Assembly (NCBI GenBank): GCA_041659365.1
Contig: JBAZYH010000004.1
Span: 164-64,163, forward strand
Origin: Minisyncoccota bacterium
GTDB lineage: Bacteria > Patescibacteriota > Minisyncoccia > Phycocordibacterales > GWA1-40-21
Length of the DNA stretch: 64,000 bases
Reading direction: 5' to 3'
The translations under genes were made by a program, and so were the position numbers. The notes under the pieces were generated by a model. That model ran no database searches and had not been told where the DNA came from. It was given only the letters and a program-made list of their open reading frames with translations. Of the stretch, positions 12,274-35,693 are shown in pieces. The first letter of the stretch is position 1. Every line of letters starts with the position of its first letter.

Positions 12274-12276
12274 TTA

Positions 12277-12857: not shown

Positions 12858-13997
12858 TTGTATTTTAAAATTACGAAAATGGCGTCCATAAATCTTATAG
12901 AAAAAATAACTAATCTTTTTGTAGAAGGTAAACATCAACAAATAATAGATGTTTTGAGTGAGGAATCTGTCAGATTAAAAAAAACTGGTAAAATGGTAGC
13001 CAGTAAAAAACTTCAAAACATTATTAAAAAAATACCTATTAATAAAAGTTCTTTTGTTGGAGCATCCTCTAATCATTCTGTAAAATCAATAGATATTTCA
13101 AATTATCGTGAAAATAATCTAGTAAAAAAATATTATTCTCAAGTTACACCAGAACAAGTGATTCTAAATATTTCTGCAAAAGATAAAATAGAAAATCTTT
13201 TTAAAGAATGGGAAGATTTTGATAGACTTTCTAAACATAATCTCTTCCCAACAAATAGAATTTTATTTTATGGTCCACCTGGTACAGGAAAAACTTTGTT
13301 AGCAAATGCAATTGCACAACACTTAGATTTTCCACTTGTTTTAGTTAGGTTGGATGAATTAATCTCTTCATTTTTAGGTGAAACTGGTAAAAATATTAGA
13401 GATATATTTGAAATTGCGTCAAAAGAACCCGTGGTGTTATTTTTAGATGAAATAGATACTATTGCTAAATTTAGATCTGATGAAAAAGAATTAGGTGAAT
13501 TAAAAAGAGTTGTTACAGTTTTGTTACAAAATATTGATTTTTTTCCAAATCAATCAATAATTATTGGCGCAACAAATCACGATGGTATTCTCGATAAAGC
13601 AATCTGGAGAAGATTTCCATTAAAATTGAAATTGGATTTACCCGATATTAATAGTAGAAAATTATTGTTTAAACTTTTTTTAAAAGGAACAGATCATAGT
13701 ATTGATTACGATTTAATAGCAAACATTACCGAAGGGTTAAACGGATCAGAGATTTTTGATATTGTTCAAAATGCAAAAAAACAATCAATACTTACAAACA
13801 GTAATAAGGTTACAAATATAATTATTGCCCAATCTTATCTAATAACATATAATATAGAAAAACCTCATATTGGATCGACTAAAAAAACAATATATGCTTT
13901 GTGTCAAAAACTCAAAGATTCTGGTTTAAAACTAAGAGAAATTGAAACTATATCTGGTATAGCATATACAACTCTTCGAGATAATTTAAAAAAATAA
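12858..13997 (+). CDS. AAA+ ATPase (classic AAA family), ietA-like
   Basis: Walker A ILFYGPPGTGKTLLANAIA, Walker B VLFLDEIDTI, second region of homology (IIGATNHDGILDKAIWRRF). Confidence 0.8.
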   Translation: MYFKITKMASINLIEKITNLFVEGKHQQIIDVLSEESVRLKKTGKMVASKKLQNIIKKIPINKSSFVGASSNHSVKSIDISNYRENNLVKKYYSQVTPEQVILNISAKDKIENLFKEWEDFDRLSKHNLFPTNRILFYGPPGTGKTLLANAIAQHLDFPLVLVRLDELISSFLGETGKNIRDIFEIASKEPVVLFLDEIDTIAKFRSDEKELGELKRVVTVLLQNIDFFPNQSIIIGATNHDGILDKAIWRRFPLKLKLDLPDINSRKLLFKLFLKGTDHSIDYDLIANITEGLNGSEIFDIVQNAKKQSILTNSNKVTNIIIAQSYLITYNIEKPHIGSTKKTIYALCQKLKDSGLKLREIETISGIAYTTLRDNLKK

Positions 13998-16354: not shown

Positions 16355-16624
16355 TGTTTGGTTTTCTGGGATTATTTTATATAAACCTTGCATTAAAAGT
16401 GTATATTGATATAATCAAATGACACAATTTAATAAGTAGAGACCTAACCCTTTTAAGATTTATTTTGAAAGGTATGGTCAAAAACGCACGATACAAAAAA
16501 CCCTCACATTAGGGCGTATCGTGCGTTGTATTGGGAAACTAATACAGAGGTTTAAAAACCTTCCTAGTGTGGGGCTTTTTCGTATCTACACACTAGACAT
16601 TATTAGTCTATTAACTTAAAAAAA

Positions 16625-17671
16625 ATGAAAGTGAAGCACGATATCACTCTCGGTGAATTAGGAGTAGTTTGTGGTTTAATTATTATTGTAATTTTTGCTA
16701 TTATTTATTGGTATATAGGAATACCTGCTTTAGTAATTTGGTATCTATTTAAAAAGAGAAAAAATAAATTTCCACTAAAAACAAATTTGATTATAGCTGG
16801 TGGCACTTTAGGTGTTGTATTTTCTGTCTTTTTCATAAATTTATATATTCATAGAACACCAAGTTTAACTATTTCTGAACCACAAGATTTAATAACTCTT
16901 CAGGTTGCAACCACTACGATTAAAGGGAAGGTTAGTCCGTCTTCAAGCAATTTAACTGTTAATGGTATAAGTATTAAGGCAAATTTCGGTGGACATTTCA
17001 TATATGAGGCTTCTTTAAAAAATGAAAATAATACCTATACTTTTATTGCAAATAATAAAGATAAAAGTCAAACACAAACACTAACAATTAAACGTATATT
17101 TACTGCAGATGAATTAGCTCAAATAGAACAAGCAAAAAAAGAGGCACTTGCTAAAGCGGAAAAAGATAAAGCAGATGAATTAAAAATAAGACTACAAAGA
17201 GAAATTGATAGTTTTAATAAGCCATTTGATAATAGTATTTATCGAAATGATATAACATCTCTTACTCTTGAAGTTATGTTATTTAGTGGTTGGGCAAAGT
17301 GGATTACAGAAGGAAAAGAATCTAATAATACAGAAGTTAAAAATTTAGCGAACCAATTAGAACAAAAGGTTTCCCAACGACAAATTAAAGAATTTCCTTT
17401 AATGAGAAAAACTTACGCTAAATTAATCGGAAATTTGTTATGGGAGCAAGATATATCAGTAGAAACACTTGGTGCTACAAATAAAACGATTCAACTTACA
17501 GGTGGAATTTTTGTGGCTAATAAAAGTAAATCAACGATTCAGGAACAATTATCTAAACAATTGAGGTTATTTAGATTTACAACAGCAAATTATAAGTGGT
17601 ATGAGTATGATGAAACATATACTTATTATGATATGGATAGTTACGTGGATAGTAAGGTAATTGAGTTATAA
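16625..17671 (+). CDS. Membrane-anchored protein with coiled coil (two N-terminal TM helices, lysine-rich coiled coil)
   Basis: TM helices at residues about 12-40 and 55-75. AKKEALAKAEKDKADELKIRLQREI coiled coil. Confidence 0.4.
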   Translation: MKVKHDITLGELGVVCGLIIIVIFAIIYWYIGIPALVIWYLFKKRKNKFPLKTNLIIAGGTLGVVFSVFFINLYIHRTPSLTISEPQDLITLQVATTTIKGKVSPSSSNLTVNGISIKANFGGHFIYEASLKNENNTYTFIANNKDKSQTQTLTIKRIFTADELAQIEQAKKEALAKAEKDKADELKIRLQREIDSFNKPFDNSIYRNDITSLTLEVMLFSGWAKWITEGKESNNTEVKNLANQLEQKVSQRQIKEFPLMRKTYAKLIGNLLWEQDISVETLGATNKTIQLTGGIFVANKSKSTIQEQLSKQLRLFRFTTANYKWYEYDETYTYYDMDSYVDSKVIEL

Positions 17672-17681
17672 AAAATAATTT

Positions 17682-18065
17682 ATGAATAATGTTATCTACA
17701 CTTATGGGCATAGTGCCCGTGCTTTTTCAGAGTTCTTAAAAGGGCTTAAAGAAAATAATATAGAAATATTAATAGATTGCAGAACTCACCCACATAGTCG
17801 CTTTTGCCCTTGGTTCAATCAAAAAGCCCTCTCAGAGGGTTTAAATAAGGAAAGTATCACTTATCTATTTAAAGGTAAAAACCTTGGTGGTATGGGGGAA
17901 AATATTGATTATGAAAAAACTATAGGCGAACTAGTAGAAATGGTTAAAAAGGGAAAGAAGGTTTGTGTTATGTGTAGTGAAAAAGATTATAGAAAATGTC
18001 ATAGATTTTTAATGCTCACTCCTTCATTTGAGACAATGGGTGTAAAAGTTGAACATATAGAGTAA
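17682..18065 (+). CDS. DUF488-family protein
   Basis: MNNVIYTYGHSARAFSEFLKGLKENNIEILIDCRTHPHSRFCPWFN matches the DUF488 N-terminal signature (IYTIGHS...LVDVR..P.SR). Confidence 0.6.
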   Translation: MNNVIYTYGHSARAFSEFLKGLKENNIEILIDCRTHPHSRFCPWFNQKALSEGLNKESITYLFKGKNLGGMGENIDYEKTIGELVEMVKKGKKVCVMCSEKDYRKCHRFLMLTPSFETMGVKVEHIE

Positions 18066-18075
18066 TATATATCTT

Positions 18076-18822
18076 ATGAAAGACAACTTCGTTAAAAAAT
18101 TACTTGAGCGATTAAGTCAAAAGCAAACCATTATAAAAAGAAATTATGGAGAAAATTTATATTTAGAAAATCGTAAAAAGTTAATATCTTTATTATTAAG
18201 TCACCCATATTATATTGAGGGAATTATTAAATTAAAAAATAGTATAAAAAATAGTAAAATTCCTGTTGGGGAAAGTAATGAAAAAGTATTTTTTTGGGAG
18301 CATTTCAATGATAATAATGTTCGTCTCATAAGAAAAAAGATTCAAAAATTAATATCAGAATTTAATTTTAATGTTTTATATATTAATGATATAGAACAAT
18401 TTACTTATGATTATATAATTTGTCCGTCTAGAATTGAAAAAATTTCAAAAGAGAATATACCCAGTTTGGTTATAGTTAATACAGACGAAGATAGAAAAAT
18501 TAATGCTCATTTATTTTCTTCAAATTCTCGATATATACAAATTTTTGACTGGACAACACTTAAAGATATACAAGAAAATTGGGATAAAATTAAAGAGGGT
18601 ATTTTAGAAAAATCTATAGAAATAGATGTGAGTGATGACCTTTCTAAACTTCTTTGGAAATTAAAATTAGAAGGAAAAAATATTAAAGAAATGACTTATG
18701 ACGTGAATACTAAATACAAATATTTGTTATCCAAAATAAAAGATAACCTCTTAGGCGAAGATAATACGAGGGTATATATACATCGCTATGAGACAAGGTT
18801 AAAAAAGTTAAAAGATTTTTAA
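18076..18822 (+). CDS. Hypothetical protein (248 aa)
   Basis: ORF only. Confidence 0.35.
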   Translation: MKDNFVKKLLERLSQKQTIIKRNYGENLYLENRKKLISLLLSHPYYIEGIIKLKNSIKNSKIPVGESNEKVFFWEHFNDNNVRLIRKKIQKLISEFNFNVLYINDIEQFTYDYIICPSRIEKISKENIPSLVIVNTDEDRKINAHLFSSNSRYIQIFDWTTLKDIQENWDKIKEGILEKSIEIDVSDDLSKLLWKLKLEGKNIKEMTYDVNTKYKYLLSKIKDNLLGEDNTRVYIHRYETRLKKLKDF

Positions 18823-19034
18823 AATATTACAGGTGACAATATCAACACCTGTAATATCGTAAAAAAGAATATTTTCCTAAGATATAAGAATGATATCTAA
18901 GGAAGATTTTAAAAAAGCTCTCGGAGAAAAGATTCATTCTATTTCAGAAGAAGATATAGAAAAACTGAGAATTGGAATGGATGAAATGGCGGAAATCCTT
19001 TTTGATATTTGGAATGATAAAATAATTAAATTAG

Positions 19035-20756
19035 ATGAAGGAAAAACAATTTCAACAACAAAAAATATGTAGTTTTGGAGTTGCTAGAGTTAGTTCTGAT
19101 AAACAAGCCCAAGAAGGTGAAAGTTTTGACGACCAAAGAGATGCGATTTCTCGCTTTGCTGAAAAGAAAGGTTGGGATAATGTTTGCACTTTTCAGTTTT
19201 CTCTTTCAGGTAGAACTGAGGTTGCCGAGCTTATTAAAAGAATAGTTGATTTTTTAGAGAAAACTCCACATAAAATAAAATACTGTATATTTAAAAAAAT
19301 TGACCGCATAACTAGAGCTGGAACTGATGGGTATTCTGAGATAAAAATAGCTCTCGAAAAATATGGTGTAGAAATAATTGATACTTACGAAATAATTCAA
19401 CCAGAAAGAAACACTCTGGAACATTTAGGTTTTGATTATGATTGGAGTCATTATTCTCCTACAGGGACAGCAATTTTAATGGAAGTTAATAGAGCCAAGG
19501 ATGAAACGCGGGATATTTTAACTAGGATGATTGGACAGGAAATAAGTCTTGTTCAACAAGGATATCGAGTCCGACAAGCTCCTGACGGTTTTAAAAATGA
19601 AACGATATATGTTAATGGTAAGAAAAAATGCATAATCGTTCCTAACTCACCAAGATGTGATTATTATCTAAAAATATTTGAATTGAGGGTTCAAGGAAAT
19701 CTCACTGATGAGGAAATTGTAAAACATATAAACGCTATCGGTTTTAAATCAAGACAAAAAATTATTTGGAATATTCACAGAAACCCTATCGGAAAAACTG
19801 AAGGGACGGCTTTAACAGTTAAGCAATTACAAAGAATTGTTCAACGTCCCGTTTATGCTGGTTTTAATTATGAAAAATGGACGCATTATAAGCTTATCAA
19901 GGGTCAATACGATGGAATTGTGTCAATTGATACTTTTAATAGAGCAAATCGTGGAAAAGTTTTTATTAAGGAAAATAATGATAAAAGTTATGAATTAATT
20001 CATAATTACTCAGCAATAAGACAATCTTCAAGAAACAAAAATAATCCATTATTTCCTTTTAAATGGGTATGCTGTGATAAATGTAAAAAACCATTTTTAG
20101 CAAGCTCTCCAAAAGGTAAATCTGGGGAGGGGTTTCCTGTATATCATTGTGGTGTAAAAAATAATTTATCTAGAAATCACAAATATTATGGTATACCAAA
20201 AGATGTTTTAGATTCAAATGTTGAAATCTTACTTAAATCTTTAGAGTTTAATGATGAATATCTAGATGTATTTGAAAAAGTTCTTATAAATAAATATAGA
20301 GAACGAGAAAAAGAAGTGGTTCAAGACTCATCAAATATAAATAGAAATATTTCTAATCTACAAAGTGAACAAGTAAATTTAATAAATCAATTAATTAATA
20401 TTGAGAGCAAGATTGCTCGTAAAAATATTGAAGAAAGGATTGAGAGACTAGAAATTGATATTAATAAAGCTCGTTCGCAGAGAGATGAAATGGAAATAAA
20501 AGAGCACGATATTAAATCTTATATTAGAAGTGCAAAATATTTAATGGAACACCCAAGAGAATTGCTTATAGAACCTGATGATTTTAATATTCAGAAAGCT
20601 TTAATGAACTTAGTTTTTGATACTATGCCGACCTACTCTGAAATAATCAATGGAACACCCAAATTAGCTTTAATTTTCAAGCTATCAGAACAATTTAAAA
20701 TAAACAAAAACCTATTGGTGACCTTACGGGGAATCGAACCCCGATTACAGCCTTGA
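19035..20756 (+). CDS. Large serine recombinase (integrase). Its 3' end overlaps tRNA-Glu.
   Basis: N-terminal resolvase catalytic domain (GVARVSSDKQAQEGESFDDQRDAI), recombinase domain, zinc ribbon (CDKCKKPF...YHCG), coiled coil. The last about 40 nt are the tRNA-Glu 3' part. Confidence 0.85.
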   Translation: MKEKQFQQQKICSFGVARVSSDKQAQEGESFDDQRDAISRFAEKKGWDNVCTFQFSLSGRTEVAELIKRIVDFLEKTPHKIKYCIFKKIDRITRAGTDGYSEIKIALEKYGVEIIDTYEIIQPERNTLEHLGFDYDWSHYSPTGTAILMEVNRAKDETRDILTRMIGQEISLVQQGYRVRQAPDGFKNETIYVNGKKKCIIVPNSPRCDYYLKIFELRVQGNLTDEEIVKHINAIGFKSRQKIIWNIHRNPIGKTEGTALTVKQLQRIVQRPVYAGFNYEKWTHYKLIKGQYDGIVSIDTFNRANRGKVFIKENNDKSYELIHNYSAIRQSSRNKNNPLFPFKWVCCDKCKKPFLASSPKGKSGEGFPVYHCGVKNNLSRNHKYYGIPKDVLDSNVEILLKSLEFNDEYLDVFEKVLINKYREREKEVVQDSSNINRNISNLQSEQVNLINQLINIESKIARKNIEERIERLEIDINKARSQRDEMEIKEHDIKSYIRSAKYLMEHPRELLIEPDDFNIQKALMNLVFDTMPTYSEIINGTPKLALIFKLSEQFKINKNLLVTLRGIEPRLQP

Positions 20757-20790
20757 AAAGGCCGTGTCCTAACCGTTAGACGATAAGGCC
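20716..20790 (-). tRNA. tRNA-Glu(UUC), CCA encoded
   Basis: Minus-strand read: ggcctta-tc-gtct-aacggtta-ggac. Anticodon stem cggcc/ggctg, loop ttTTCaa. T-arm cgggg-ttcgatt-ccccg. Acceptor 3' strand taaggtc, then acca. Confidence 0.85.
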
Positions 20791-24766: not shown

Positions 24767-25279
24767 ATGTCTCCTCTAAAATTAGAAACACGTGAGCAAA
24801 TAGTCAATAATTTGATGGTCTCAATTCGTAAAGAGATTCGTGCAGCTACCCTTTTTGTACACACAATGTCTGAAATTACAGGAATGCACCCTACAGATAT
24901 AAAATGTCTAGATTTTTTGAGTGATGTTAAATTCGCAACAGCTGGAGAATTAGCCAAAATTACAGGACTTACAACTGGTGCAATTACAGCAGTCATAGAT
25001 AGATTGGAAAAAATAGGTTTTGTAAAACGCGAGGCAGATAGTAAAGATAGAAGAAAAATTATAGTTAGAATAGTAGCAGAACATCCAAATAACCTAGAAC
25101 TAGTAAGAAATATTTTTGCAGATAAATTACCTAATAATTTATCTGAATACAAAGATGAAGAACTTAATCTAATTACAAATTGGAACAAAAAACTATCTGA
25201 TATTTTCCACAGTGAAATAGAAAAAATAAAAACTTCAAAGAAGGAATTAAACCCTAAATTAAAATCTAACAGTTTTTAA
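24767..25279 (+). CDS. MarR-family transcriptional regulator
   Basis: GELAKITGLTTGAITAVIDRLEKIGFVKREADSKDRRKIIVRI is a MarR winged helix. Confidence 0.75.
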   Translation: MSPLKLETREQIVNNLMVSIRKEIRAATLFVHTMSEITGMHPTDIKCLDFLSDVKFATAGELAKITGLTTGAITAVIDRLEKIGFVKREADSKDRRKIIVRIVAEHPNNLELVRNIFADKLPNNLSEYKDEELNLITNWNKKLSDIFHSEIEKIKTSKKELNPKLKSNSF

Positions 25280-26588
25280 AACTAATCTTCTTTTTACTCA
25301 AACAAATCCTGCTTTTCAAACACCCCAATAATTCTCTCTTTTCCAAATCACTCCCTTCCCTCAATACATATCTAGCATATCCTCGTATATCAACACTTGG
25401 TATACTAACTTTTTCTTTAGTTCCCAAAAAGAATTTTTGTAAGTTGGTAAATTTCTCAACATCCGTTTTAATTTTTTCTTTAATCTGAATCTCATTTATA
25501 TTAATCTTTTCAATTAATTCTTCGAACTGTTTGAGAATATCTTTTTCTTCTGTATAACCACATTTGCAGTCGGTGCCTCGTGCCTTGGTGCAACCATAAT
25601 AGACGTATCTTGTAATTGTTCCGTTCTTATATTTCTTAAATTTTTCATCAGCACATATACCCGATCCACAAAGTCCGCAGGTCATCATTTTGGTGAAAGC
25701 AAATTCTTTGTTTTCGATCCTTAAAACATTACTTTTTATTTGCTCTTGGACTAAATTAAATAACTCTTTCGTAATTAGCGGTTCATGCTTTCCTGTATAC
25801 CAATTACCAGATTTTTTGGGATATTCAAATACCCCATAATAGAATGGATTATCTAAAATTTTATAAAGATTACCTAAACTTAGATGTTTCTTACCAACTG
25901 CCGTTCTGAAGTTTAACTCAAACCTCAACCAGTTGTATATCTTCCTCCCACTCCAATGTTCATATGCTACTTTCTCAAACATTTTTTTGATAGTTGATGC
26001 TCTTTCTGGGTCAACCAACACTTCACATTTTTTATTTGTCATTTTTTGGTTTAAATAACCAGTAGGTGCTACCCCTGGCCTTAGTCCCATTTCACATCTA
26101 GTTCTCAATCCTCGTTTAACATTTACACTTTTATTATCATTTTCAAGTTTTGCTTGAGAACATAGAATCATTAATAGAAACTTTTCATTTGGTGAGTTCT
26201 TAAAGTGTTGTCCGTAAGTTCGTATCTCTAAAAGTAATTGTTGATCCATTAAATCAACCACACTCCCTAGGTCGCCTGCATTACGAGATAGACGATCTGG
26301 TGCCCAAGTTAATATCCCATTAAATCGTCCTCGTCGTATGTCTTCCAGTATTTCTTTGTATACTGGTCGTTGTCCTGATTCTTTAGCTGAATGAGATTCT
26401 TTTCTGATTTCAACTACTTCCAAGTCCTCACGTTCAGCAAGTTGTAACATTTCCTTAACCTGTGAATCAATTGAAAGAACCTGACGTTCTTCTGACTCAG
26501 TTGATTTTCTTGCATACAATACATATTTAATTTTCTCTACTTGGCTAATAATGGGATGGTTAAACTGTGCTGTTGTATATGTTTCCAT
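25266..26588 (-). CDS. Large serine recombinase (second copy)
   Basis: YARKSTESEERQ...(resolvase catalytic Ser), recombinase domain, zinc ribbon CGLCGSGICADEK...YYGCTKARGTDCKCGY. Confidence 0.85.
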   Translation of the reverse strand: METYTTAQFNHPIISQVEKIKYVLYARKSTESEERQVLSIDSQVKEMLQLAEREDLEVVEIRKESHSAKESGQRPVYKEILEDIRRGRFNGILTWAPDRLSRNAGDLGSVVDLMDQQLLLEIRTYGQHFKNSPNEKFLLMILCSQAKLENDNKSVNVKRGLRTRCEMGLRPGVAPTGYLNQKMTNKKCEVLVDPERASTIKKMFEKVAYEHWSGRKIYNWLRFELNFRTAVGKKHLSLGNLYKILDNPFYYGVFEYPKKSGNWYTGKHEPLITKELFNLVQEQIKSNVLRIENKEFAFTKMMTCGLCGSGICADEKFKKYKNGTITRYVYYGCTKARGTDCKCGYTEEKDILKQFEELIEKININEIQIKEKIKTDVEKFTNLQKFFLGTKEKVSIPSVDIRGYARYVLREGSDLEKRELLGCLKSRICLSKKKISFKNC

Positions 26589-26680
26589 ATACCAATGGTG
26601 TCAGAGAAAGAGTCTTTTGCTAAGTCTATGCAGAACTATGAATACGTAGTATGGTCGCGAGTATCTTTTTAATGATTTTA

Positions 26681-28243
26681 TTAACCCACATCTACATAAT
26701 CGCCGTAAAAAACGATATCATCGTCAGATACTCCACGTCTGTTCATATCAAACCAAGCCATAAGAATTGTTCCTTCGTTTGAATGTTTATCAAGAGTAGA
26801 ATTAATAAGTAGTGAAAATGCGTCAGCTATGTCGTCATGTTTCTCCACTCCAAATTCAACTAGTTGTTCGATAAGTTCCTCACATCCTTGTCTTGGAAAT
26901 TTAATAACTCCAGACTTTATTGACGTTGATGTTAAAGATAATCTAGTTCTTTTATCTCCCTTTGGTTTAACTGATTCAGCTTTGATCCCATGCAACTCAA
27001 GCATTTGAGGTAGTGCTTCTTGGTAAGCAACACTTTCAACAAACAATGTATCTTGAGACCTAGGCATTTGAGTATTCTTAAAGTTTTTCATTAGCTCAAC
27101 TTGATCGGGGAAATTTATTTTCTTAACAATTGGATTAGGAAGAATATAAATTTTCATTTTCTCCCTACGACCATACACATGAGCCGAGACAATTGCAGTG
27201 AAGTCGGCAGAATCTTTAGAAGATATAGCGAGGTCAACTCCTGCATAAGTGCCACGATATGCTTTATGTTTTGTCCCAGGTAATTCATCGTAGTATTGAA
27301 TCCACTCAGGATAAATAACTTGATCATCGCTTGGAATAATACGAAGTAGATATTCTCGTTGCCATGATATTTCACTAGCAACTTTCATTTTTTCATCTTC
27401 TATATCTTTTACATCTGGATACTTCCCAGGCCATAAACAAATATTGTCTTCATCGAGTAATGGGTATTGTTTAAAAATACCTTTTGATCTTTTATTTTCT
27501 ATATCTTCCCTTATTCTCATTAGTAATGAATCTTCGTGCAAAAGGTTACCAACAGCGATAAGTCTGGTTTTACGATCTCCTGCGGGGATTACTTCGCCAT
27601 ATAGCCATTGGTACGTCTTATCTCGTCCCTCACGAGTTTTGGTTGATTGTACGTCTTCTACGTCGTCACAGATTATCAGATCAGGTCTATGCTCATTGTG
27701 TCTAATTCCTCGTATACTCTGCTCTGTTGAGGCAACAGTAATACGAGCATTACTTTTATTAAATACCAAGGAATATGAACCCCATTCATCACTCTGTTCT
27801 TGGAATGGTCCCAAATCCCTTTTTAATAAATCATTACCCTCAAGTTCACTTCTAATATTCATCATATGTTGCTTTGCTTGTGTCCTTGTCTGACAGAAAA
27901 TTAAACAAAATTTCTTTTGTTGTTTTCCAAGTATTGCCCATATTGGGTAGGCAGTTGTAACCATTGTGGATTTACCAGATCCACGAAAAGCAACTACATA
28001 CAAATTCTCTGTGTCGCTACTTTCTAAATGGTGAATTATTTCTTTCTGAAAATCTGCTGTTTCGTATTTTACATAATGGGCATAATAGAAATGGAAAAAA
28101 TATAAGAAACTATCTCTTGTGATAGATGTTCTTACGAGCCTATCTTTCATCATCTTATTTACTAAACTATTTTCAATGATTTTAGTCATGGTTTTTCTTT
28201 TCGTTAATATTTTTAATAGATTTCGACTTAGTAATTGAGGCAA
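26681..28243 (-). CDS. Phage terminase large subunit-like protein
   Basis: Walker A VVAFRGSGKST, Walker B-like LIICDDVEDV, and a C-terminal RNaseH-like nuclease with acidic residues (AGVDLAISSKDSADFTAIV). Confidence 0.7.
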   Translation of the reverse strand: MPQLLSRNLLKILTKRKTMTKIIENSLVNKMMKDRLVRTSITRDSFLYFFHFYYAHYVKYETADFQKEIIHHLESSDTENLYVVAFRGSGKSTMVTTAYPIWAILGKQQKKFCLIFCQTRTQAKQHMMNIRSELEGNDLLKRDLGPFQEQSDEWGSYSLVFNKSNARITVASTEQSIRGIRHNEHRPDLIICDDVEDVQSTKTREGRDKTYQWLYGEVIPAGDRKTRLIAVGNLLHEDSLLMRIREDIENKRSKGIFKQYPLLDEDNICLWPGKYPDVKDIEDEKMKVASEISWQREYLLRIIPSDDQVIYPEWIQYYDELPGTKHKAYRGTYAGVDLAISSKDSADFTAIVSAHVYGRREKMKIYILPNPIVKKINFPDQVELMKNFKNTQMPRSQDTLFVESVAYQEALPQMLELHGIKAESVKPKGDKRTRLSLTSTSIKSGVIKFPRQGCEELIEQLVEFGVEKHDDIADAFSLLINSTLDKHSNEGTILMAWFDMNRRGVSDDDIVFYGDYVDVG

Positions 28244-28598
28244 GCTTGAGTGCCTGTTTTACTATTTTTGCTTGTGATGGAGTAAGTTCTTCCTTATCTT
28301 CTTTTGTAGTAATTTCTATCTTATCTCTGTAATTATCATTTCGGTGTTTCAACCAGAAAGAAATAGCCGACCAGTTCTTTTCTTTGATCATAGTAAGCAA
28401 TTGACTTTCGCTCATATCATTTACAAAAGCAACACCTTCAGACATAGCTTTATCCATTTTTGCAGAGAAAGATTTATCATCTTTTTTCCAACGATATACA
28501 CTATTTCTAGATACTCCTGTTTTTTCACATGCTACTTGCACGATAGGAACTTTCTTCAACTCTTCAAAGAATTGATCTTGTGATTTATTTTTCTTCAT
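28182..28598 (-). CDS. Terminase small subunit-like HTH protein
   Basis: VACEKTGVSRNSVYRWKKDD is an HTH. Located immediately upstream of TerL and overlapping it. Confidence 0.55.
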   Translation of the reverse strand: MKKNKSQDQFFEELKKVPIVQVACEKTGVSRNSVYRWKKDDKSFSAKMDKAMSEGVAFVNDMSESQLLTMIKEKNWSAISFWLKHRNDNYRDKIEITTKEDKEELTPSQAKIVKQALKLASITKSKSIKNINEKKNHD

Positions 28599-29868
28599 AA
28601 GATTTTATCTGGGCTTTTTTACCAGTAAATAATTCATAACGTTTTATAATCAAATCACAAAACTTTGGCTCTAGCTCTAAGCCATATACTCTTCGACCTA
28701 ATTGTTCACCTGCAAGGAGAGTGCTACCTGAACCCAAGAAACTATCTAAGATAATGTCATTTGGTTTTGTACATCGTTTTATAGCCTTCTCATGAAGAGT
28801 TATCGGTTTAGAAGTCGCATGTTCATAGTCCTTAGCTGAAAGCCTTTTAGCTGTCCATATCTCAAGAAAATCATCAACTTGTGCTACAAGTTCATTTCCT
28901 GTTCCGAATTCTTTGTTTAATACCTCATTAAGAGTTGTGATTGATTCTGCAAGGTATGGTCGTCCACGAATACCATAGACCGCAGGTTCATATGCTTTAT
29001 TGCAGAATATTTTAGGCACGGGGTTTTGTGAATTTTTCAGCCATAAGCAAACTCGTTTATTAGACACACCAAGTGATCTGTATATGTCCTGAATTAATCC
29101 TATATACACCTGATCGCAATAATAGAAAACGTGCGTACTAGGGTTAGATACTGCAAGTGCTGACTCTAAACTTTCTCGAATAAATGTTTTATATTCTTCA
29201 AAAGTTCTAGAATCTTTTACACTTCCTCCGTACTCTTTATTTCCACCAATTCCACCATCATAGTCTATATCTAGGTTATACACTGGGTCCGAATAGATCA
29301 TCGAAACTTTCTCTTCGCCTAACAGTCTTTTTAGATTTTCAGGTTTAGTTGAATCACCACAAAGAATTTTGTGTTTACCGAGAATAATAATATCTCCTAA
29401 TTTTGTTTTAGGTTCTGTTATTTTTTTGATTTCTTTTTCGATATCGAAATTATCTTCTTTAACTTCCTGATCTTCATCCCAGAATTTTGCAATTTCCATA
29501 TCTTCAAACCCCGCGAGTTGAAGAAGCTCCATGTCAAAAGATCTAAGGAGATCATAATCCCAGTCACCACCTAATTTATTTGAAGCAATTAGATATTGTT
29601 TCGATTCTATTTCTGTAAGCTTTCTATTTGGAATCCTTACGTCAATTATTTCTTCTCCACGATCTAATAACTGCAAAGCCCTAATCCTTTGGTGTCCTGC
29701 CAAAATAACTCCTGTTTTATCAATAGCAGGAATCTCAACTAAATTATACTTCTGCAAACTTTTCTTAATATCTGACATTTGCTTATCTGATATTTTGCGA
29801 GGATTGATCTTTTGAGGAATAAGATCATTAACATTTCTTTGGACCGTAGTCCATATGAGTTTACTCAT
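28585..29868 (-). CDS. ParB-like nuclease domain fused to a DNA methyltransferase (beta class, N6A/N4C)
   Basis: N-terminal ParB/Srx-like region (VEIPAIDKTGVILAGHQRIRALQLL). Methyltransferase motif IV SDPVYN (DPPY-type) precedes motif I ILDSFLGSGSTLLAGEQLGRRVYGLELE. Confidence 0.75.
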   Translation of the reverse strand: MSKLIWTTVQRNVNDLIPQKINPRKISDKQMSDIKKSLQKYNLVEIPAIDKTGVILAGHQRIRALQLLDRGEEIIDVRIPNRKLTEIESKQYLIASNKLGGDWDYDLLRSFDMELLQLAGFEDMEIAKFWDEDQEVKEDNFDIEKEIKKITEPKTKLGDIIILGKHKILCGDSTKPENLKRLLGEEKVSMIYSDPVYNLDIDYDGGIGGNKEYGGSVKDSRTFEEYKTFIRESLESALAVSNPSTHVFYYCDQVYIGLIQDIYRSLGVSNKRVCLWLKNSQNPVPKIFCNKAYEPAVYGIRGRPYLAESITTLNEVLNKEFGTGNELVAQVDDFLEIWTAKRLSAKDYEHATSKPITLHEKAIKRCTKPNDIILDSFLGSGSTLLAGEQLGRRVYGLELEPKFCDLIIKRYELFTGKKAQIKSYEEK

Positions 29869-30038
29869 ATTATTTTATTAATAAATTTAATAAAATGTAT
29901 AGATATAGAAAAAGCCTATTCCGTACACGAAATAAAAGAAGTTTGACTAAACTCAATTTATTTCTTGCGCGGAATAGGCATGGCTTTGAAGCGATACACT
30001 ATTCTACTTTTTACTACGCATTAACTAACATTTGTATT

Positions 30039-30461
30039 TTAATCCGTAGGTTTATTTTTTGCAAGCCCACGAATAATTCTTTGTCCATTTTTACTTTTTA
30101 TAAATTCGACCATATCTTTTCCAGCAACAATGGGAAGTCCTGCTTTTGGTATCTGTATTACGACTTCAAATCCATTTTTACGCTCTTCTTCTACGTACTT
30201 TACAAATGCAGGATCATTCTGTAATTGAGTAAGAATTTCCATTTTGAAAGTATTTGTATTTTCTACAATGGGTTCAGGTTTATTTATATGTTGATATATT
30301 CTACCTGGTTGCCCAATTGCATTAAAAGCTTTTTTAAGTTTACTTCCAAATGTACTGGGTCGTTTTGGACTAGCATGCAACATAATATCCGTTAAAAGAA
30401 TATTCTTATATTTTACTCCTTCTTTTCTTGCTGTTGGCTTAAATTCTAATTTGTATTCCAT
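30039..30461 (-). CDS. Hypothetical protein (140 aa), divergent from the repressor gene
   Basis: ORF only. Sits in a lysogeny-switch-like position. Confidence 0.35.
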   Translation of the reverse strand: MEYKLEFKPTARKEGVKYKNILLTDIMLHASPKRPSTFGSKLKKAFNAIGQPGRIYQHINKPEPIVENTNTFKMEILTQLQNDPAFVKYVEEERKNGFEVVIQIPKAGLPIVAGKDMVEFIKSKNGQRIIRGLAKNKPTD

Positions 30462-30492
30462 AGCTTTTTACACTTGCTTAAATTTATACTTA

Positions 30493-30518
30493 GGTGTATA
30501 CTATTGTATACTATTATG
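30493..30518. promoter_or_regulatory. Candidate operator: tandem GTATAC palindromes in the divergent region
   Basis: ttaggtgtatactattgtatactatt between the divergent gene 30039-30461 and the repressor gene. Confidence 0.4.
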
Positions 30519-31133
30519 AATAAAAACACAAGAGACAAAGATATATCAGTGCTTAAATTTATAAGAAATACGTTCATTAACAGCGGTACGGGTCCTTCCC
30601 TAAGAGAGATAAATGAGGTTACAGGAGGTAAATCTCCTCGATCTGCCAGTATCATTTTAGACAGACTTGAAAAAGATGGTTTTATAAAAAGACAGAATGG
30701 AAAAATAATTTCTATTGCTTTTGAAAAACCAAATTCTGTTTCAACGATTAATATACCATTAGTGGGAGCTGTACCCTGTGGTGCACCAATGTTGGCAGAA
30801 CAAAATATTGAAACTTATATTCCTGTTTCAACTGCTTTAGCAAAGAAAGGGTCAAATTATTTTCTTTTAAGAGCAACTGGGGATTCTATGAATCTAGCAG
30901 GGATAAATGATAAAGATATTCTTTTAGTTAGGCAACAAGAAACTGCTGATAATGGAGAAAAAGTTGTAGCTTTAATTGATGAAGAAGCTACTGTAAAAAT
31001 TTTAGATAAAAAAGACGATGTTGTAATTTTAAGACCAAAATCTTCAAATTCTTCACACAAGCCAATTATATTATCAAATAATTGTCAGATTCAGGGAGTC
31101 GTCGTGGCTGTACTTCCATCTGACTTATATTAA
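30516..31133 (+). CDS. LexA/CI-like repressor (wHTH plus S24 self-cleaving peptidase domain)
   Basis: SLREINEVTGGKSPRSASIILDRLEKDGFIKRQ. PLVGAVPCGAP cleavage region. GDSM catalytic Ser and a downstream Lys (VKIL). Confidence 0.75.
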   Translation: MNKNTRDKDISVLKFIRNTFINSGTGPSLREINEVTGGKSPRSASIILDRLEKDGFIKRQNGKIISIAFEKPNSVSTINIPLVGAVPCGAPMLAEQNIETYIPVSTALAKKGSNYFLLRATGDSMNLAGINDKDILLVRQQETADNGEKVVALIDEEATVKILDKKDDVVILRPKSSNSSHKPIILSNNCQIQGVVVAVLPSDLY

Positions 31134-31136
31134 AAT

Positions 31137-31415
31137 ATGAATACAATACTTATTTCATATGACCTAAATGGTCACGAAGATAGTGAGTCTTATAAAAAAC
31201 TCATAGAAAAAATTAAAGAATATCCAAGTTGGGCAAAACCTTTGGAGTCTTTTTTCTTAGTAAAAACAGATAGCAGTTCCTCTGAAGTACGAGATAATTT
31301 AACCCCATATATAGATTCAAACGACGAGCTCTTAACTATAAACGTTACTAATCGTGGTTGGGCTAGTAGGGGTATATCAACAAAAGTAAATGATTGGTTA
31401 AAGACAAACATGTAA
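31137..31415 (+). CDS. Hypothetical small protein with a weak Cas2-like/ferredoxin-fold N-terminal pattern
   Basis: MNTILISYDLNG...PLESFFLVKT weakly resembles the Cas2 beta1/beta3 pattern (VLVSYDI...SVFEC). No CRISPR array is present. Confidence 0.3.
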   Translation: MNTILISYDLNGHEDSESYKKLIEKIKEYPSWAKPLESFFLVKTDSSSSEVRDNLTPYIDSNDELLTINVTNRGWASRGISTKVNDWLKTNM

Positions 31416-31440
31416 TATTAAAAATTAATTTATAAAAAAT

Positions 31441-31647
31441 ATGTTACCAAAATATATAAAAAATTCGGGGAAACAATGGACACCCTCAGAAGAAAAACAA
31501 TTAAAATCATTAGCAAAAGACAATACACCCACTCGTGTAATTGGTCTTAAATTAGGTCGACCAGTAGGAGGAGTGCAAAATAAAGCATCAGAGCTAGGTG
31601 TAAGTTTAAAACCTACAAATCAAGCACCATATAATCGTAAAAAATAG
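31441..31647 (+). CDS. Hypothetical small basic protein (68 aa)
   Basis: ORF in the operon. Possible DNA-binding. Confidence 0.3.
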   Translation: MLPKYIKNSGKQWTPSEEKQLKSLAKDNTPTRVIGLKLGRPVGGVQNKASELGVSLKPTNQAPYNRKK

Positions 31648-31648
31648 C

Positions 31649-32041
31649 ATGGAAGCGAAATTAAAACATTTGGAATTTATCCAAGCAACAATTAATCGTA
31701 TGTCCAGTAATTCTTTTCTCTTAAAAGGATGGGCTATAACAATTATTGGTGGACTTTTTGCACTAACATTCAAAGAAACAAATTGCACCTATATTTATTT
31801 TTCTTCCATGCTTTTAATATTTTTTGCATTATTAGATTCATATTACCTATCAAGAGAAAGACTTTTTATTAAACTTTATAATCAGGCAAGAAAAGAGGAG
31901 GAACCTGATATAAAATTTTCTATGGACATTAGTAAATTTAAATCTGGATGTGATTGGTGTGATGCTCTCTTTTCTACCACTACAGGTTTATTTTATGGTG
32001 GACTACTTATTACTCAGTTTCTAATAATCTATTTTATTTAA
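31649..32041 (+). CDS. Small three-TM membrane protein (130 aa) immediately upstream of ThsB. Candidate effector.
   Basis: TM helices WAITIIGGLFALTF, IYFSSMLLIFFALLDSYYL and GLFYGGLLITQFLIIYFI. The stop abuts the ThsB start. Confidence 0.45.
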   Translation: MEAKLKHLEFIQATINRMSSNSFLLKGWAITIIGGLFALTFKETNCTYIYFSSMLLIFFALLDSYYLSRERLFIKLYNQARKEEEPDIKFSMDISKFKSGCDWCDALFSTTTGLFYGGLLITQFLIIYFI

Positions 32042-32042
32042 T

Positions 32043-33002
32043 ATGGCAAGATATGTATTTTTCAGCTTTCATCATGGGGGCGATTCAAAAAGAATAGGTG
32101 TTGTTAGAAATCATAATGTTACCAAGGATGATTATCAAGAGGCTGGATATATTGATTCTGCTGATTGGGAAAAGATTAAACTTCAAGGTAAAGATTCCGT
32201 AAAAAAATGGATCAATACTCAACTAAATGGGACATCTGTTACAGTTGTACTGATTGGTGCTAAAACCTCAGAACGAGAATGGGTTAATTATGAAATTCAA
32301 GAAAGTTTTAACAGGGGGAATGCATTACTTGGTGTTTATATACACAATATAAAAGGACTCGACCAGGTTACTACACCTAAAGGAGAAAATCCTTTTGATA
32401 ATTTTTCAATAGATGAAAATGGGAAACCTCTTAGTAGTATTGTTTCTACATATGATTGGGTAAATAATGATGGATATAATAATTTTAGTGAATGGGTAGA
32501 ATCAGCATATAAAAATTGGCAAAAACCAGAAAATTCTGTTTTAAAAAGTATTACTAAAATATCTACCGTAAACACAAATCTTGAAACACCACAAACAAAA
32601 ATATTAAGTCGTGATCAAGGTGAACAGTTTATTGAGGATATTGGGATTAAAACAAATTTAATATACAGAGTAGGACTTGACTGCGAAGTTAAACAGGATG
32701 GGTTTAGACCTTTTTTTCTTAAGAGTTCGAGTAATCCTTTGAAGAAAAAACGCTCTTTAGAATTTTTTATTAATTCTTGTACAGTTCCAAAACCGTATTC
32801 AATAAAATGGAAAGTAAAAAATACAGGGAGTGAAGCTTCCTCATTAAGTGCACTTAGAGGAGAAATAACTGACGATGCTGGTTTTGAAAGAAAAAAGGAA
32901 AATACCTTATATACAGGGACTCATTATGTTGAATGTTATGTGATAAAAGATAATCAATGTGTTGCTAAGGATAAAATTAATGTTCCCATATCATCTTATT
33001 AA
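32043..33002 (+). CDS. thsB: Thoeris ThsB-like TIR-domain protein with a C-terminal beta-rich extension
   Basis: RYVFFSFHHGGDSKRIGVVRNHNVTK, GTSVTVVLIGAKTSEREWVNYEI, GVYIHNIKG...KGENPFD and TYDWVNNDGYNNFSEWV. These closely follow the Bacillus cereus ThsB pattern (RVFFSFHY...VVRNHWVTK, NTSVTCVLIGS...RWVRYEI, GIHIN...GPNPFD, VYDWVADDGYNKFSSWV), recalled from memory and not searched. Confidence 0.8.
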   Translation: MARYVFFSFHHGGDSKRIGVVRNHNVTKDDYQEAGYIDSADWEKIKLQGKDSVKKWINTQLNGTSVTVVLIGAKTSEREWVNYEIQESFNRGNALLGVYIHNIKGLDQVTTPKGENPFDNFSIDENGKPLSSIVSTYDWVNNDGYNNFSEWVESAYKNWQKPENSVLKSITKISTVNTNLETPQTKILSRDQGEQFIEDIGIKTNLIYRVGLDCEVKQDGFRPFFLKSSSNPLKKKRSLEFFINSCTVPKPYSIKWKVKNTGSEASSLSALRGEITDDAGFERKKENTLYTGTHYVECYVIKDNQCVAKDKINVPISSY

Positions 33003-33018
33003 CTAATAATAAATAATT

Positions 33019-33510
33019 ATGAAAAGACAAGTTTTTTATAGTTTCCATTATGACAATGACCACTGGAGGGCATCTCAAGTCCGAAACATCGGAGCAATTG
33101 AAGGTAATAGACCTGCTCCAGATAATGATTGGGAGACAGTTAAAAAAGGTGGAGATCAAGCTATTGAACGCTGGATTAATGAACAAATGAAATATCGTTC
33201 TTGTACGATTGTTTTAATCGGATCAAAAACCGCTGATAGAAAATGGATAAAACATGAAATAAAGAAATCTTGGGAAAATGGAATGGGGTTAGTTGGCATA
33301 TATATTCATAACTTAAAAAATAGTGTTGGGTCACAGGGATATCAAGGGAGTAATCCTTTTGATAGTTTTAATCATAATGGAACACCATTAAATCAAATAA
33401 TTAAAACTTATAATCCTCCATACAATGACAGTAAACAAGTTTATGCTTATATAAGCAATAATATAGGTGCATGGGCTGATGAAGCAGTTTTAATTCGTCA
33501 AAAATACTAA
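33019..33510 (+). CDS. thsB: Second, shorter ThsB-like TIR-domain protein
   Basis: KRQVFYSFHYDNDHWRASQVRNIG, SCTIVLIGSKTADRKWIKHEI, GIYIHNLKN...GSNPFD. Confidence 0.75.
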   Translation: MKRQVFYSFHYDNDHWRASQVRNIGAIEGNRPAPDNDWETVKKGGDQAIERWINEQMKYRSCTIVLIGSKTADRKWIKHEIKKSWENGMGLVGIYIHNLKNSVGSQGYQGSNPFDSFNHNGTPLNQIIKTYNPPYNDSKQVYAYISNNIGAWADEAVLIRQKY

Positions 33511-33522
33511 TCAAATATCTAT

Positions 33523-34191
33523 ATGGATTTTGATGTTGCTATTTTAAATCTAAATAAAATTTTAGAAGAAAAACAACCATCAAAAATTAGTCCATCTTGG
33601 ATTTTTCAAAACTCTCCCCGTGTATATCGTTATATTTGGAAAAATATCAGGACCGAAAATAATGAAATTGACTGGGATATTGTTACTGATTCTTTAGATA
33701 GATCATTTCAGAAATGTTGGACTAGATACAGGTATAAAAAAGCCAAACTTTACGAGAAGCAGTCTGAAGTTGATCTAATCATAAATAAGTATAAAGATAA
33801 ACTTTATACATTTTTAACAGTTACAAATGAAAAAGATAAACATATTCAAGACAGAATGGTTATAAGCTTAGTTAGACTTGGACAAAAAGGAAATGTTTGT
33901 GCTCAAGAAGAGTTGATTAAATGGGTAACTTTTATTACTGACGACTGGATTGATCGTTACCCACAGATGTGCAGATGGAAAGGATATACAGATGAAGTAC
34001 CAGATAAGATTAGAGGATGTATCCGTTGTTATAGATATACAGGGTCTTTTCTTGGGTATCTTTTTAGAACTCTTGAATATTCAGTAAGGGGTAAACCTCC
34101 TTTGGTGTCTTTGAATGACAAGATTTTTGATGGTAGTAAAACCCTAGAAGAATATGCGAGGGTGGAGGAAGATTGGCAGATATATAAATAA
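33523..34191 (+). CDS. Hypothetical soluble protein (222 aa; W/R/Y/C-rich). Weak sigma-70 region 2-like pattern.
   Basis: No SIR2, SLOG or Macro signature. Co-oriented, with a 12-nt gap after the second TIR gene. Confidence 0.35.
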   Translation: MDFDVAILNLNKILEEKQPSKISPSWIFQNSPRVYRYIWKNIRTENNEIDWDIVTDSLDRSFQKCWTRYRYKKAKLYEKQSEVDLIINKYKDKLYTFLTVTNEKDKHIQDRMVISLVRLGQKGNVCAQEELIKWVTFITDDWIDRYPQMCRWKGYTDEVPDKIRGCIRCYRYTGSFLGYLFRTLEYSVRGKPPLVSLNDKIFDGSKTLEEYARVEEDWQIYK

Positions 34192-34196
34192 AGGAC

Positions 34197-34463
34197 TTGC
34201 TATATATTCAAATAATTGTAATATCTAGCGATATGAGAAGAAGATGGCAAAAAGATTATATATCTAAGAATGGTTATTCACCAGAAACCAACAGATTAGT
34301 GGGAAGCTTATCTTATGTTATTTTTTATTCAATTATATTTTATATAGCCTTTAAGGTATGGGGAATGGATGTTTTAGATGATGTTTGGTTCTGGGTTTTT
34401 AACGTTATATCTTATCCGTTTGTTGGTTGGTTTCTAAGAAAAATTAAGTTCTGGGTTTATTAA
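34197..34463 (+). CDS. Small two-TM membrane protein (88 aa) at the operon end
   Basis: LSYVIFYSIIFYIAFKVWG and FWVFNVISYPFVGWFL helices. Confidence 0.4.
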   Translation: MLYIQIIVISSDMRRRWQKDYISKNGYSPETNRLVGSLSYVIFYSIIFYIAFKVWGMDVLDDVWFWVFNVISYPFVGWFLRKIKFWVY

Positions 34464-34689
34464 AAGTTACAGTTGAATGTAACCTTTAACCTCAATCCCG
34501 TGTCACTTTTGTCACTTTTTTAATTCGCACGAGATACGTCGTTATGGTAATATAAAATTATTAGAAATAACGTTACAGGGCTTGTCATCGAAAGGTCCTA
34601 ACACGAGTGTCCCCGCATTTAAAAATCCACTGGAAACAGTGTGTTTTTTATACGGGGAGAAACGAGCAAACTTCTTTGCTCGTGTGTGA

Positions 34690-34772
34690 GATTCGAAAGA
34701 TTTTTCCATACGAGCTTTTGCGAGGAGGAAAAATACCTGGCTATGTGATAGCCGAATCTCCCCCTCTCCGCA
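34690..34772 (+). repeat. attR-like site: 20-nt near-identical direct copy of the tRNA-Ser 3' end, preceded by a module also found downstream of tRNA-Phe
   Basis: 34753-34772 cgaatctccccctctccgca against tRNA-Ser 21166-21185 cgaatctccctctctccgca (19/20). Upstream tacctggctatgtgatagccga matches 2868-2890 tacctggctacgtggtagccga. Confidence 0.65.
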
Positions 34773-34869
34773 AAATATATTATTGTTAAAATATAATATC
34801 CATGTTATAATTAACAAGGTTTAGTTTGGATTAACCATGAAGGTTATTCCTTAACAAAAGGAGTTTGAG

Positions 34870-35160
34870 ATGAAGAATGAGATGAATTTTCGTACTGCAT
34901 TTTGGGGACATGGAGCACCTTTCGGGTTTGTCTTTTTTGTTCTCATTGTGTGTATTTTATTGGTAACCGCTTCTAACTCTCAGCAGTTTTGTGAACCTGA
35001 GGGAGATTTCACGAAGTATCTTTATATAGCGAATGAGATTAACTACCAATTCATTTTGGTTTGTTCATCTCTAGTTTCGTTTATTATTTGTTTAATGATC
35101 ACTTTCTGGAAGATGAAAATCCGTCCGATTTTGGGTGTGGAGGATTATTTAATTCCGTGA
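34870..35160 (+). CDS. Hypothetical small membrane protein (96 aa)
   Basis: Two or three TM helices. Terminator hairpin at 35164-35190 (gaggccagcgacaagtcgctggcctc). Confidence 0.4.
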   Translation: MKNEMNFRTAFWGHGAPFGFVFFVLIVCILLVTASNSQQFCEPEGDFTKYLYIANEINYQFILVCSSLVSFIICLMITFWKMKIRPILGVEDYLIP

Positions 35161-35215
35161 GTTTGAGGCCAGCGACAAGTCGCTGGCCTCTTAATTTGTT
35201 TTTCGGTATTTTTGT

Positions 35216-35284: not shown

Positions 35285-35357
35285 GGGCGGTTAGCTCAGT
35301 TGGTAGAGCATTTCTTTGACGTAGAAAGGGTCACAGGTTCGAATCCTGTACCGCCCA
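35285..35357 (+). tRNA. tRNA-Val(GAC)
   Basis: gggcggt-ta-gctc-agttggtag-agc. Anticodon stem tttct/agaaa, loop ttGACgt. T-arm acagg-ttcgaat-cctgt. Acceptor 3' strand accgccc. Confidence 0.85.
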
Positions 35358-35693
35358 CAAACGTTAATAAAACCTGAACCGCTTCAGGTTTTTAGTTTGT
35401 GGGAAGCGCAGTGATATTTTGTTAGCAAACAAAATCACGAGCTGGGGTCACGAGTACTTACGTAGAATTTGAGCATAGCGAAAAATTATACTTAGTAACT
35501 CGTGTACACACCAAATAGAGATCCTTTAAAAAATGAGTGACGACGAACAAAAAACTCGTGACCGATCCCTGCACTTCTAAATTAAATCTTACAGAATAAG
35601 AGTCCTTGTCTTTACTATATTTCCCCTTGACCTTCCCTTACAAAAGTCTAATATTACTTATAGAGAAGTTCAAACTAAAGGAAAGGAATTCTT

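Follow-up and report, generated by a model that had tools for sequence, protein, structure and literature searches.

Which genes of a repressor-headed operon with two TIR proteins form a defence system, and through which effector would these proteins act? The question is raised by eight genes in a 64,000-nt stretch of DNA from a Minisyncoccota bacterium (GenBank assembly GCA_041659365.1, contig JBAZYH010000004.1, positions 164 to 64,163 of the forward strand), referred to at its full length as the window. An earlier note on this DNA had read the operon as an undescribed Thoeris-like arrangement, with small membrane proteins as candidate effectors and a 222-aa protein as a candidate signal-binding module. 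We scanned the open reading frames (ORFs) from 21.3 to 37.2 kb with Pfam, PADLOC, PHROGs and NCBIfam, and surveyed 80 genomic loci, from many phyla, of homologues of the operon's 130-aa transmembrane (TM) protein, with their ORFs scored (labels L001 and so on). The results make it quite likely that three genes, thsF + thsB1 + thsB2, work together as a type V Thoeris system carried as cargo by an integrative element, with the S24 protein encoded by the first gene of the operon as the master repressor of that element.

The ThsF-family protein and its TIR partners

The eight ORFs claimed for this array were all recovered, co-oriented on the + strand (30516-34463) and separated by gaps of 3, 25, 1, 1, 16, 12 and 5 nt. 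The fourth gene (31649-32041) encodes a 130-aa protein with three hydrophobic segments in its sequence, and 1 nt lies between its stop codon and the start of thsB1, in agreement with the description of a three-TM protein whose stop abuts a TIR gene. This protein matched the PADLOC model PDC-M50A (4.6e-43) and phrog_19896 (4.2e-34), and the two TIR proteins encoded next to it, ThsB1 (32043-33002) and ThsB2 (33019-33510), both matched PDC-M50B (1.7e-60 and 1.2e-63, respectively). Their designation as ThsB-like was supported by Pfam PF08937 (6.7e-23 for ThsB1 and 4.6e-28 for ThsB2) and by the PADLOC ThsB hidden Markov model (HMM) (3.7e-60 and 1.6e-72). The claimed resemblance to Bacillus cereus ThsB was verified, since the TIR part of ThsB1 aligned over its full length with ThsB of B. 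cereus MSX-D12 (6LHY/9B7D, E 3e-30). This alignment covered the 'W(V/I)xYEI' region including the YEI glutamate, with KWIKHEI at the same position in ThsB2, and the catalytic-site region of ThsB1 is kept relative to B. cereus ThsB. As had been claimed, no SIR2/SLOG or Macro domain that would mark a ThsA was found in the ORFs from 21.3 to 37.2 kb.

In the survey, a TIR or TIR-like gene adjoined the TM gene in 77 of the 80 loci (76 on the same strand by phmmer, plus L061 by Pfam). A ThsB-type TIR like those of the window was encoded directly downstream of the TM gene in 62 loci, a second ThsB_TIR clade ('FVSYKYGD...', PF08937 30.5 bits) was present at eight, and other TIR-like ORFs stood up- or downstream of it at six, among which that of L069 passed ThsB_TIR and that of L057 had no Pfam match. 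Since one family of TM proteins is thus accompanied by many TIR clades, it bears the signature of a Thoeris effector. The family is large: a word-indexed database gave 773 matches to the 130-aa protein, the 120 listed being about 54-99% identical to it, and an exhaustive profile search gave 5,137 representatives at 50% clustering.

Type V Thoeris consists of ThsB and ThsF, a three-TM protein annotated as DUF2270; two Bacillus systems of this type have been validated, with 3'-cyclic ADP-ribose (3'cADPR) as the signal in one, and the validated TIRs produce 3'cADPR on infection only, the molecule then triggering ThsF toxicity (Yirmiya et al., bioRxiv 10.64898/2025.12.03.692087). Table S1 of the same study gives the label 'DUF2270 - Type V' to TIRs that share 59-60% identity with ThsB2 and 44% with ThsB1. 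The TM family leads to the validated systems as well. In an Exiguobacterium locus (L069), a TIR that shares 71% identity with the validated ThsB of the Bacillus sp. 1NLA3E type V system is directly followed by a TM protein 47% identical to that of the window. On Terribacillus and Priestia plasmids, homologues of the 130-aa protein adjoin relatives of the other validated ThsB, from B. thuringiensis, and in L088/L089 they follow ThsBs 47-49% identical to it. These sequence relationships indicate that the 130-aa protein is probably ThsF, the type V Thoeris effector. The proposal that small membrane proteins of the operon act as effectors thus holds for this protein, which matches PDC-M50A, and fails for the 88-aa protein, whose homologue recurred in one of the 80 loci. 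With this assignment, the missing effector of a 'ThsA-less' Thoeris locus falls into a very large family (5,137 clusters) that Pfam barely covers.

Several points weigh against the assignment to type V. The 130-aa protein of the window has no match to Pfam PF10028 (DUF2270), and its close relatives score E 0.012-0.24 against this profile, under the 25-bit cut-off. The link to validated ThsF is indirect, running through homologues of its partner ThsBs. The validated type V systems use TIRs outside cluster 2661146773, the clade of the window TIRs, and the experimental systems lie outside Patescibacteria. Moreover, 3'cADPR failed to activate the 1NLA3E system, and type XI TIRs of cluster 2661146773 made no known signal (bioRxiv 10.64898/2025.12.03.692087); because of these two results, the identity of the signal in the window system is uncertain. 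The '3TM' effector class of Yirmiya et al. was tried as another match and rejected: its TIRs belong to a different clade ('SHSW...YSVP'), which stood beside the TM gene in none of the 80 loci. A literature search on 'PDC-M50' found no paper naming it, and the text of the PADLOC 'embedded defences' preprint is without a description of it.

The AlphaFold2 model of the 130-aa protein (predicted local distance difference test score 87) has helices at residues 2-43, 47-82 and 110-129, forming a long helical hairpin and a C-terminal helix, and the conserved charged residues of the family sit in two cytoplasmic helix extensions. One protein of the family carries a fused SLOG domain (SLOG cluster-2), which points to a TM module gated by a ligand. 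In sequence, the family lies next to DUF2270, DUF3278 and 8xMP: PF10028 was matched by seven of 138 diverse members (best E 1.4e-5), and three members matched the Pfam octameric membrane protein family 8xMP (up to 1.6e-27), which hints at the oligomeric state of ThsF-family proteins. Some members (P0414, P0417 and P0504; 351-378 aa) carry N-terminal extensions of 220-245 aa, and that of P0414, the only one checked, had no Pfam match. In the Bacteroidetes metagenome-assembled genome (MAG) of L061, an 845-aa LRR-Roc-COR-TIR protein is encoded directly downstream of the ThsF-family gene (L061:1449-3983); it is an NLR/ROCO-like TIR sensor paired with a ThsF-family effector. Among plasmids in PLSDB, ThsF-family genes matched 134 records and B. 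thuringiensis-type ThsB genes 124, with a near-identical spread over genera (about 40 Klebsiella and 36 Escherichia records, mostly conjugative plasmids); among the listed records, all ThsF-family matches were annotated as 'hypothetical protein' or lacked an annotated feature.

The repressor, its candidate operator and the mobile element

The first gene of the operon (30516-31133, ATG at 30516) had been read as a LexA/CI-like self-cleaving repressor, and its 205-aa product indeed matched Peptidase_S24 (2.7e-29) and LexA_DNA_bind (8.5e-9) in Pfam and exceeded the cut-off of the NCBIfam LexA equivalog TIGR00498 (155.5 vs 110.95 bits). In the alignment with E. coli LexA, the Ser (GDSM) and the Lys (TVKIL) are conserved and Cys-Gly stands at the position of Ala84-Gly85; UmuD likewise cleaves at Cys-Gly. 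The predicted promoter and operator region (30474-30515, + strand) comprises a -35 element TTGCTT (30474-30479), a 17-nt spacer and a -10 element TATACT (30497-30502), and lies between divergent start codons 54 nt apart. The tandem GTATAC palindromes reported for this region are a perfect tandem of two copies of TGTATACTAT (30495-30514), which overlaps the -10 element and the predicted start site and ends 1 base before the ATG. With the predicted start site just before the ATG, the mRNA would be near-leaderless. The layout recurs in L023, where the S24 orthologue closest to that of the window has TTGCAA-17-TATACT followed by GTATAC..TTATAC before its ATG, and other S24 genes carry a -10 element 6-12 nt before the ATG. 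The tandem repeat is a candidate operator of S24. No second good copy of the 16-mer pattern GTATAC-N4-GTATAC was found in the 64-kb window, so that a regulon cannot be deduced from this single copy.

From this layout and from the way S24 is placed and exchanged in related loci (below), we infer that S24 is most likely the autoregulated, self-cleaving master repressor of the element, acting at a divergent switch with the defence genes as passengers on its transcript. In the quiescent element, the Thoeris genes would be co-transcribed with the repressor at a basal level, as in lambda cI-rexAB, and RecA-stimulated self-cleavage of S24 would derepress them further, as in lexA-dinF; both expectations follow from the overlap of the candidate operator with S24's own -10 element. 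The claim of induction-coupled expression stands as one of two readings, beside which expression together with the repressor in the quiescent state is also expected.

The element itself is visible on both sides of the promoter. Divergently from the operon, a backbone on the - strand (25266-30461) comprises genes for a serine integrase (25266-26588; PHROG 3.8e-61), the terminase subunits TerL (26681-28243; 3.2e-79) and TerS (28182-28598; 3e-9), a ParB-DNA methyltransferase (28585-29868; PHROG methyltransferase 8.6e-84) and a 140-aa protein (30039-30461), and this bears out the location of the operon in a phage-like island behind an S24 repressor. The same backbone adjoins TM-TIR cassettes in L001, L003, L008, L010, L022, L023, L064, L079 and L085. 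Neither capsid nor portal genes were found from 25.3 to 34.5 kb. This recurrent compact element (25266-34463), which in Patescibacteria-type contigs combines the backbone with a divergent region of variable cargo, could represent a family of satellite-like elements or degraded prophages. The Thoeris unit is cargo of this putative integrative element of roughly 9 kb with serine integrase, terminases and ParB-methyltransferase, probably in a Patescibacteria host.

S24 could instead be a dedicated Thoeris regulator that keeps thsF and thsB near silent until DNA damage or phage-induced RecA activation, like CapH/CapP in CBASS, a weaker alternative that we find doubtful and rank below the element master repressor. 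The operator overlapping the -10 element and the intact autocleavage residues would suit such a role, as would the absence of S24 from TIR-less copies of the element (L083 and L084) and its position directly beside the TM-TIR pair in 19 of the 80 loci, in several phyla, with eight of these S24 genes co-oriented with the TM gene and 11 divergent. Conversely, 59 of the 80 TM-TIR loci have no S24, and in L008 and L064 S24 heads the backbone operon (S24-p140-MTase-TerS-TerL-Int) and not the Thoeris genes. The cassette of L085 has no S24, and in L086 a near-identical cassette (p68-ThsF-ThsB1-ThsB2-p222, 98-99% identical to that of the window, without the 92-aa gene) comes with a different, distant S24 (3e-20), so that the immunity/repressor module has been swapped, as is typical of immunity regions. 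In addition, a repressor gene has to be transcribed for repression to occur, and the genes downstream of it would thus never be fully silent. Finally, thsF has a promoter-like site 14 nt upstream, within the end of the 68-aa gene (31606-31635, TTAAAA-18-TATAAT; 10/12 matches, a consensus match only), which could give repressor-independent expression.

Full LexA proteins (winged helix-turn-helix + S24) fused to a DNA methyltransferase are encoded in L012 (4483-5910, - strand; N6_N4) and L015 (1893-3536, - strand; C5). These fusions, which are unusual, divergently adjoin ThsF-ThsB in Saccharibacteria and Nomurabacteria MAGs, and S24 ORFs of similar length are present in L018, L026, L028 and L056.

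At the right end, the island is adjoined by tRNA-Val (GAC) (35285-35358, + strand; ARAGORN, Rfam 71.4 bits), followed by a Nudix gene and a thioredoxin reductase gene as host flank; thioredoxin reductase homologues also flank related cassettes in L008 and L015. Serine integrases do not leave long repeats behind. An Rfam search over 20-37 kb returned tRNAs only. Between the operon and tRNA-Val, about 400 nt without a convincing gene (34464-34869) are followed by a 96-aa ORF with two TM segments (34870-35160) and then by a terminator-like hairpin (35165-35190), which is stronger than any other in the region. Elsewhere in the window, a second block of very low GC content (23-30%; 11782-20790) encodes an AAA ATPase (12858-13997) and, immediately behind it, an S8 subtilase of 785 aa (13997-16354), as well as a DUF488 protein and a serine recombinase of 573 aa that ends at tRNA-Glu/tRNA-Ser. 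This block may represent a further island, in which the ATPase and the protease are candidates for a defence pair.

Proposed TIR signalling, the AGS-C domain and the remaining genes

The C-terminal extension noticed on the first TIR protein is present and proved to be a complete AGS_C domain (PF18134 1e-38, covering positions 4-129 of the 129 in the profile). ThsB1 thus combines a TIR domain (~32043-32516) with AGS-C (~32622-32993), next to ThsB2 as a stand-alone TIR. Fusions of PF08937 with PF18134 are rare: they occurred in five clusters among the 120 ThsB1 matches listed, and AGS-C was found in none of the 80 survey loci. All four TIR-AGS-C fusions with a readable context were preceded by a gene of the 130-aa TM family. 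Over 132 aa, the AGS-C half of ThsB1 shares 61% identity with the C-terminus of P0274, a SMODS + AGS-C protein of 444 aa, and this identity argues that a TIR received the domain from a CBASS-type cyclase fairly recently. Neither a SMODS nor a cyclase domain was found in the operon, where AGS-C alone matches cyclase HMMs, at profile positions of about 290-430. Two ThsBs behind one effector were uncommon among the 80 survey loci; ThsB2 resembles TIRs of other lineages (e.g. L039, 1e-70), which suggests that it was acquired separately.

By analogy with the validated type V systems, we infer a course of four steps. Phage infection would activate one or both TIRs, ThsB1 through its fused AGS-C as a putative sensor domain and ThsB2 through its own surface. 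The active TIR would turn NAD+ into a cyclic ADP-ribose isomer, for which 3'cADPR is the simplest guess. This signal may bind the conserved charged cytoplasmic helices of an oligomeric ThsF (residues 1-25 and 63-82), which would then open or disrupt the membrane and abort the infection. An extension of this scheme, which we hold tentatively and with somewhat more doubt than conviction, is that AGS-C is a portable infection-sensing module, swappable among signal synthases of unrelated chemistry, namely the nucleotidyltransferases of CBASS (CD-NTases), Pycsar cyclases and TIRs, so that in these ultra-small Patescibacteria two differently triggered ThsBs feed one ThsF pore under an SOS-sensitive repressor. 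If this is true, the natural pair of a cyclase-AGS-C and a TIR-AGS-C protein at 61% identity offers a clean route to what AGS-C senses; a rare and apparently recent swap of AGS-C between two signalling chemistries is in any case a useful experimental handle.

It is improbable, in our judgement, that the TIRs are instead NAD+-depleting effectors outside any signalling Thoeris, with the 130-aa protein as their sensor, anchor or unrelated partner. Stand-alone bacterial TIR NADases such as SpbK do exist, the window clade lies outside the TIRs assayed with ThsF, and the same caveat is given for untested configurations by Yirmiya et al. (bioRxiv 10.64898/2025.12.03.692087). Against this stand the infection-dependent production of 3'cADPR by the validated type V TIRs and its triggering of ThsF toxicity, the full-length homology of ThsB1 to the signal-producing B. 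cereus ThsB, the joining of AGS-C elsewhere to signal-generating cyclases, and the ligand-gated module indicated by the SLOG-TM fusion within the effector family.

The other genes of the operon fall outside the three-gene type V unit. The 92-aa protein (31137-31415) matched phrog_1090 best (1.2e-23), and the 'Cas2-like' label once given to it was not upheld: its Pfam Cas2 score (PF09827, E 9e-4) is 19.8 bits, under the cut-off of 23.8, and PADLOC Cas2b gave E 0.013. Among sister loci, neither L086 nor L087 nor the ERZ1426830 contig has the gene, and it is missing from all 80 survey loci. The 68-aa basic protein (31441-31647; 14 K+R vs 4 D+E) matched phrog_323, 'transcriptional regulator' (8.8e-10), and is probably a small DNA-binding regulator and occasional companion of the cassette, its gene being near the TM gene in one of the 80 loci; only L079 and L086 have it in the interval from S24 to the TM gene. 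Sequence searches of the PDB with the 92-aa and 68-aa proteins gave nothing meaningful. In L087, the slot that the 68-aa gene occupies in the window, between S24 and ThsF, holds a gene for a 79-aa DUF2188 protein (365-604), and Yirmiya et al. (bioRxiv 10.64898/2025.12.03.692087) count DUF2188 among the putative Thoeris effectors. The 88-aa protein (34197-34463), probably with two TM segments, had no family match in Pfam, PADLOC, PHROG or NCBIfam, and the homologue found near a TM-TIR pair was that of L064. The 88-, 92- and 68-aa genes are variable accessories or cargo and not conserved partners.

The 222-aa protein (33523-34191), once proposed as a signal-binding module, is a backbone gene of the element and not a Thoeris component. 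It was encoded within 6 kb of the TM gene in one of the 80 loci, its predicted fold best matches sigma-factor region 2, and a search of BFVD with its model gave no significant match. Its homologues number about 400, with identities of 62-93% in the listed ones, compared with the five fusion clusters among the listed ThsB1 matches. In L083/L084 (a complete Nomurabacteria genome), its gene is the first one divergent from the backbone, in the same position and without any TIR, and in L085, L086 and L087 it stands behind the TIR gene, the order expected if the cassette had gone in ahead of it. A single new multi-component system made up of the whole operon, with the 222-aa protein as the receptor of the signal and the 88-aa protein (or the two TM proteins together) as executor, is accordingly very improbable, in spite of the tight co-orientation (gaps 1-25 nt) and of the 222-aa gene standing directly after the TIR gene(s) in all four TIR-AGS-C loci (window, L085, L086, L087), given this sigma-region-2-like fold, these TIR-less copies, and counts within 6 kb of the TM gene of 1/80 for the 222-aa, 1/80 for the 88-aa and 0/80 for the 92-aa protein. 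Three of the four 'unknown' components that had been proposed are thus not part of the Thoeris system, and with five of the eight genes removed from the candidate system, experimental effort is saved.

Comparison with known systems

With type V Thoeris, the window shares a TIR gene that abuts the gene of a small three-TM effector, TIRs of the same cluster that are listed as type V, and a TM family adjoined by homologues of both validated ThsBs. It differs in having two ThsB paralogues, one of them fused to AGS-C, in placing the effector gene first, in an effector below the Pfam DUF2270 threshold, and in carrying the cassette on a terminase-bearing integrative element behind a LexA-like repressor in a Patescibacteria-like host. 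PDC-M50 of PADLOC-DB v2, in which A is the TM protein and B the ThsB-like TIR, is matched strongly by both HMMs in adjacent genes; it is a bioinformatic candidate with a two-gene model, whereas the AGS-C fusion and the repressor lie outside that model.

Type I Thoeris of B. cereus MSX-D12 (ThsB + SIR2-SLOG ThsA) shares with the window the full-length TIR alignment, including the catalytic region, but the window has no SIR2-SLOG protein and its putative effector is a membrane protein, not an NADase. Type II Thoeris (TIR + Macro-TM effector, with His-ADPR as the signal) likewise relies on a membrane-acting effector triggered by the TIR product; in contrast, the window has no Macro domain, its TIRs belong to another clade and its effector has only 130 aa. 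CBASS and Pycsar cyclases with a C-terminal AGS-C (as defined by Burroughs et al. 2015; PF18134) share the complete domain with ThsB1, which is 61% identical in this part to the SMODS + AGS-C protein. In the window, by contrast, AGS-C sits on a TIR, not on a nucleotidyltransferase or cyclase, and no cyclase is present.

For the regulatory part, lambda cI-rexA-rexB and E. coli lexA-dinF provide the precedents, each with a self-cleaving S24 repressor, an autoregulated (near-)leaderless promoter and passenger genes downstream, the lambda passengers being a defence module. The regulation proposed for the window is read from its sequence, and its candidate operator bears no relation to the operators of lambda or to known SOS boxes.

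Contrary to the reading of the arrangement as an undescribed system, its TM protein and ThsB match PADLOC PDC-M50 and fit type V Thoeris, and the locus is therefore of a known kind. New here are a chimera of ThsB and AGS-C, which is rare, the presence of two sensors, and a Patescibacteria-type mobile element as the setting. The locus extends type V Thoeris to Patescibacteria-type genomes and to recurrent small terminase-bearing integrative elements.

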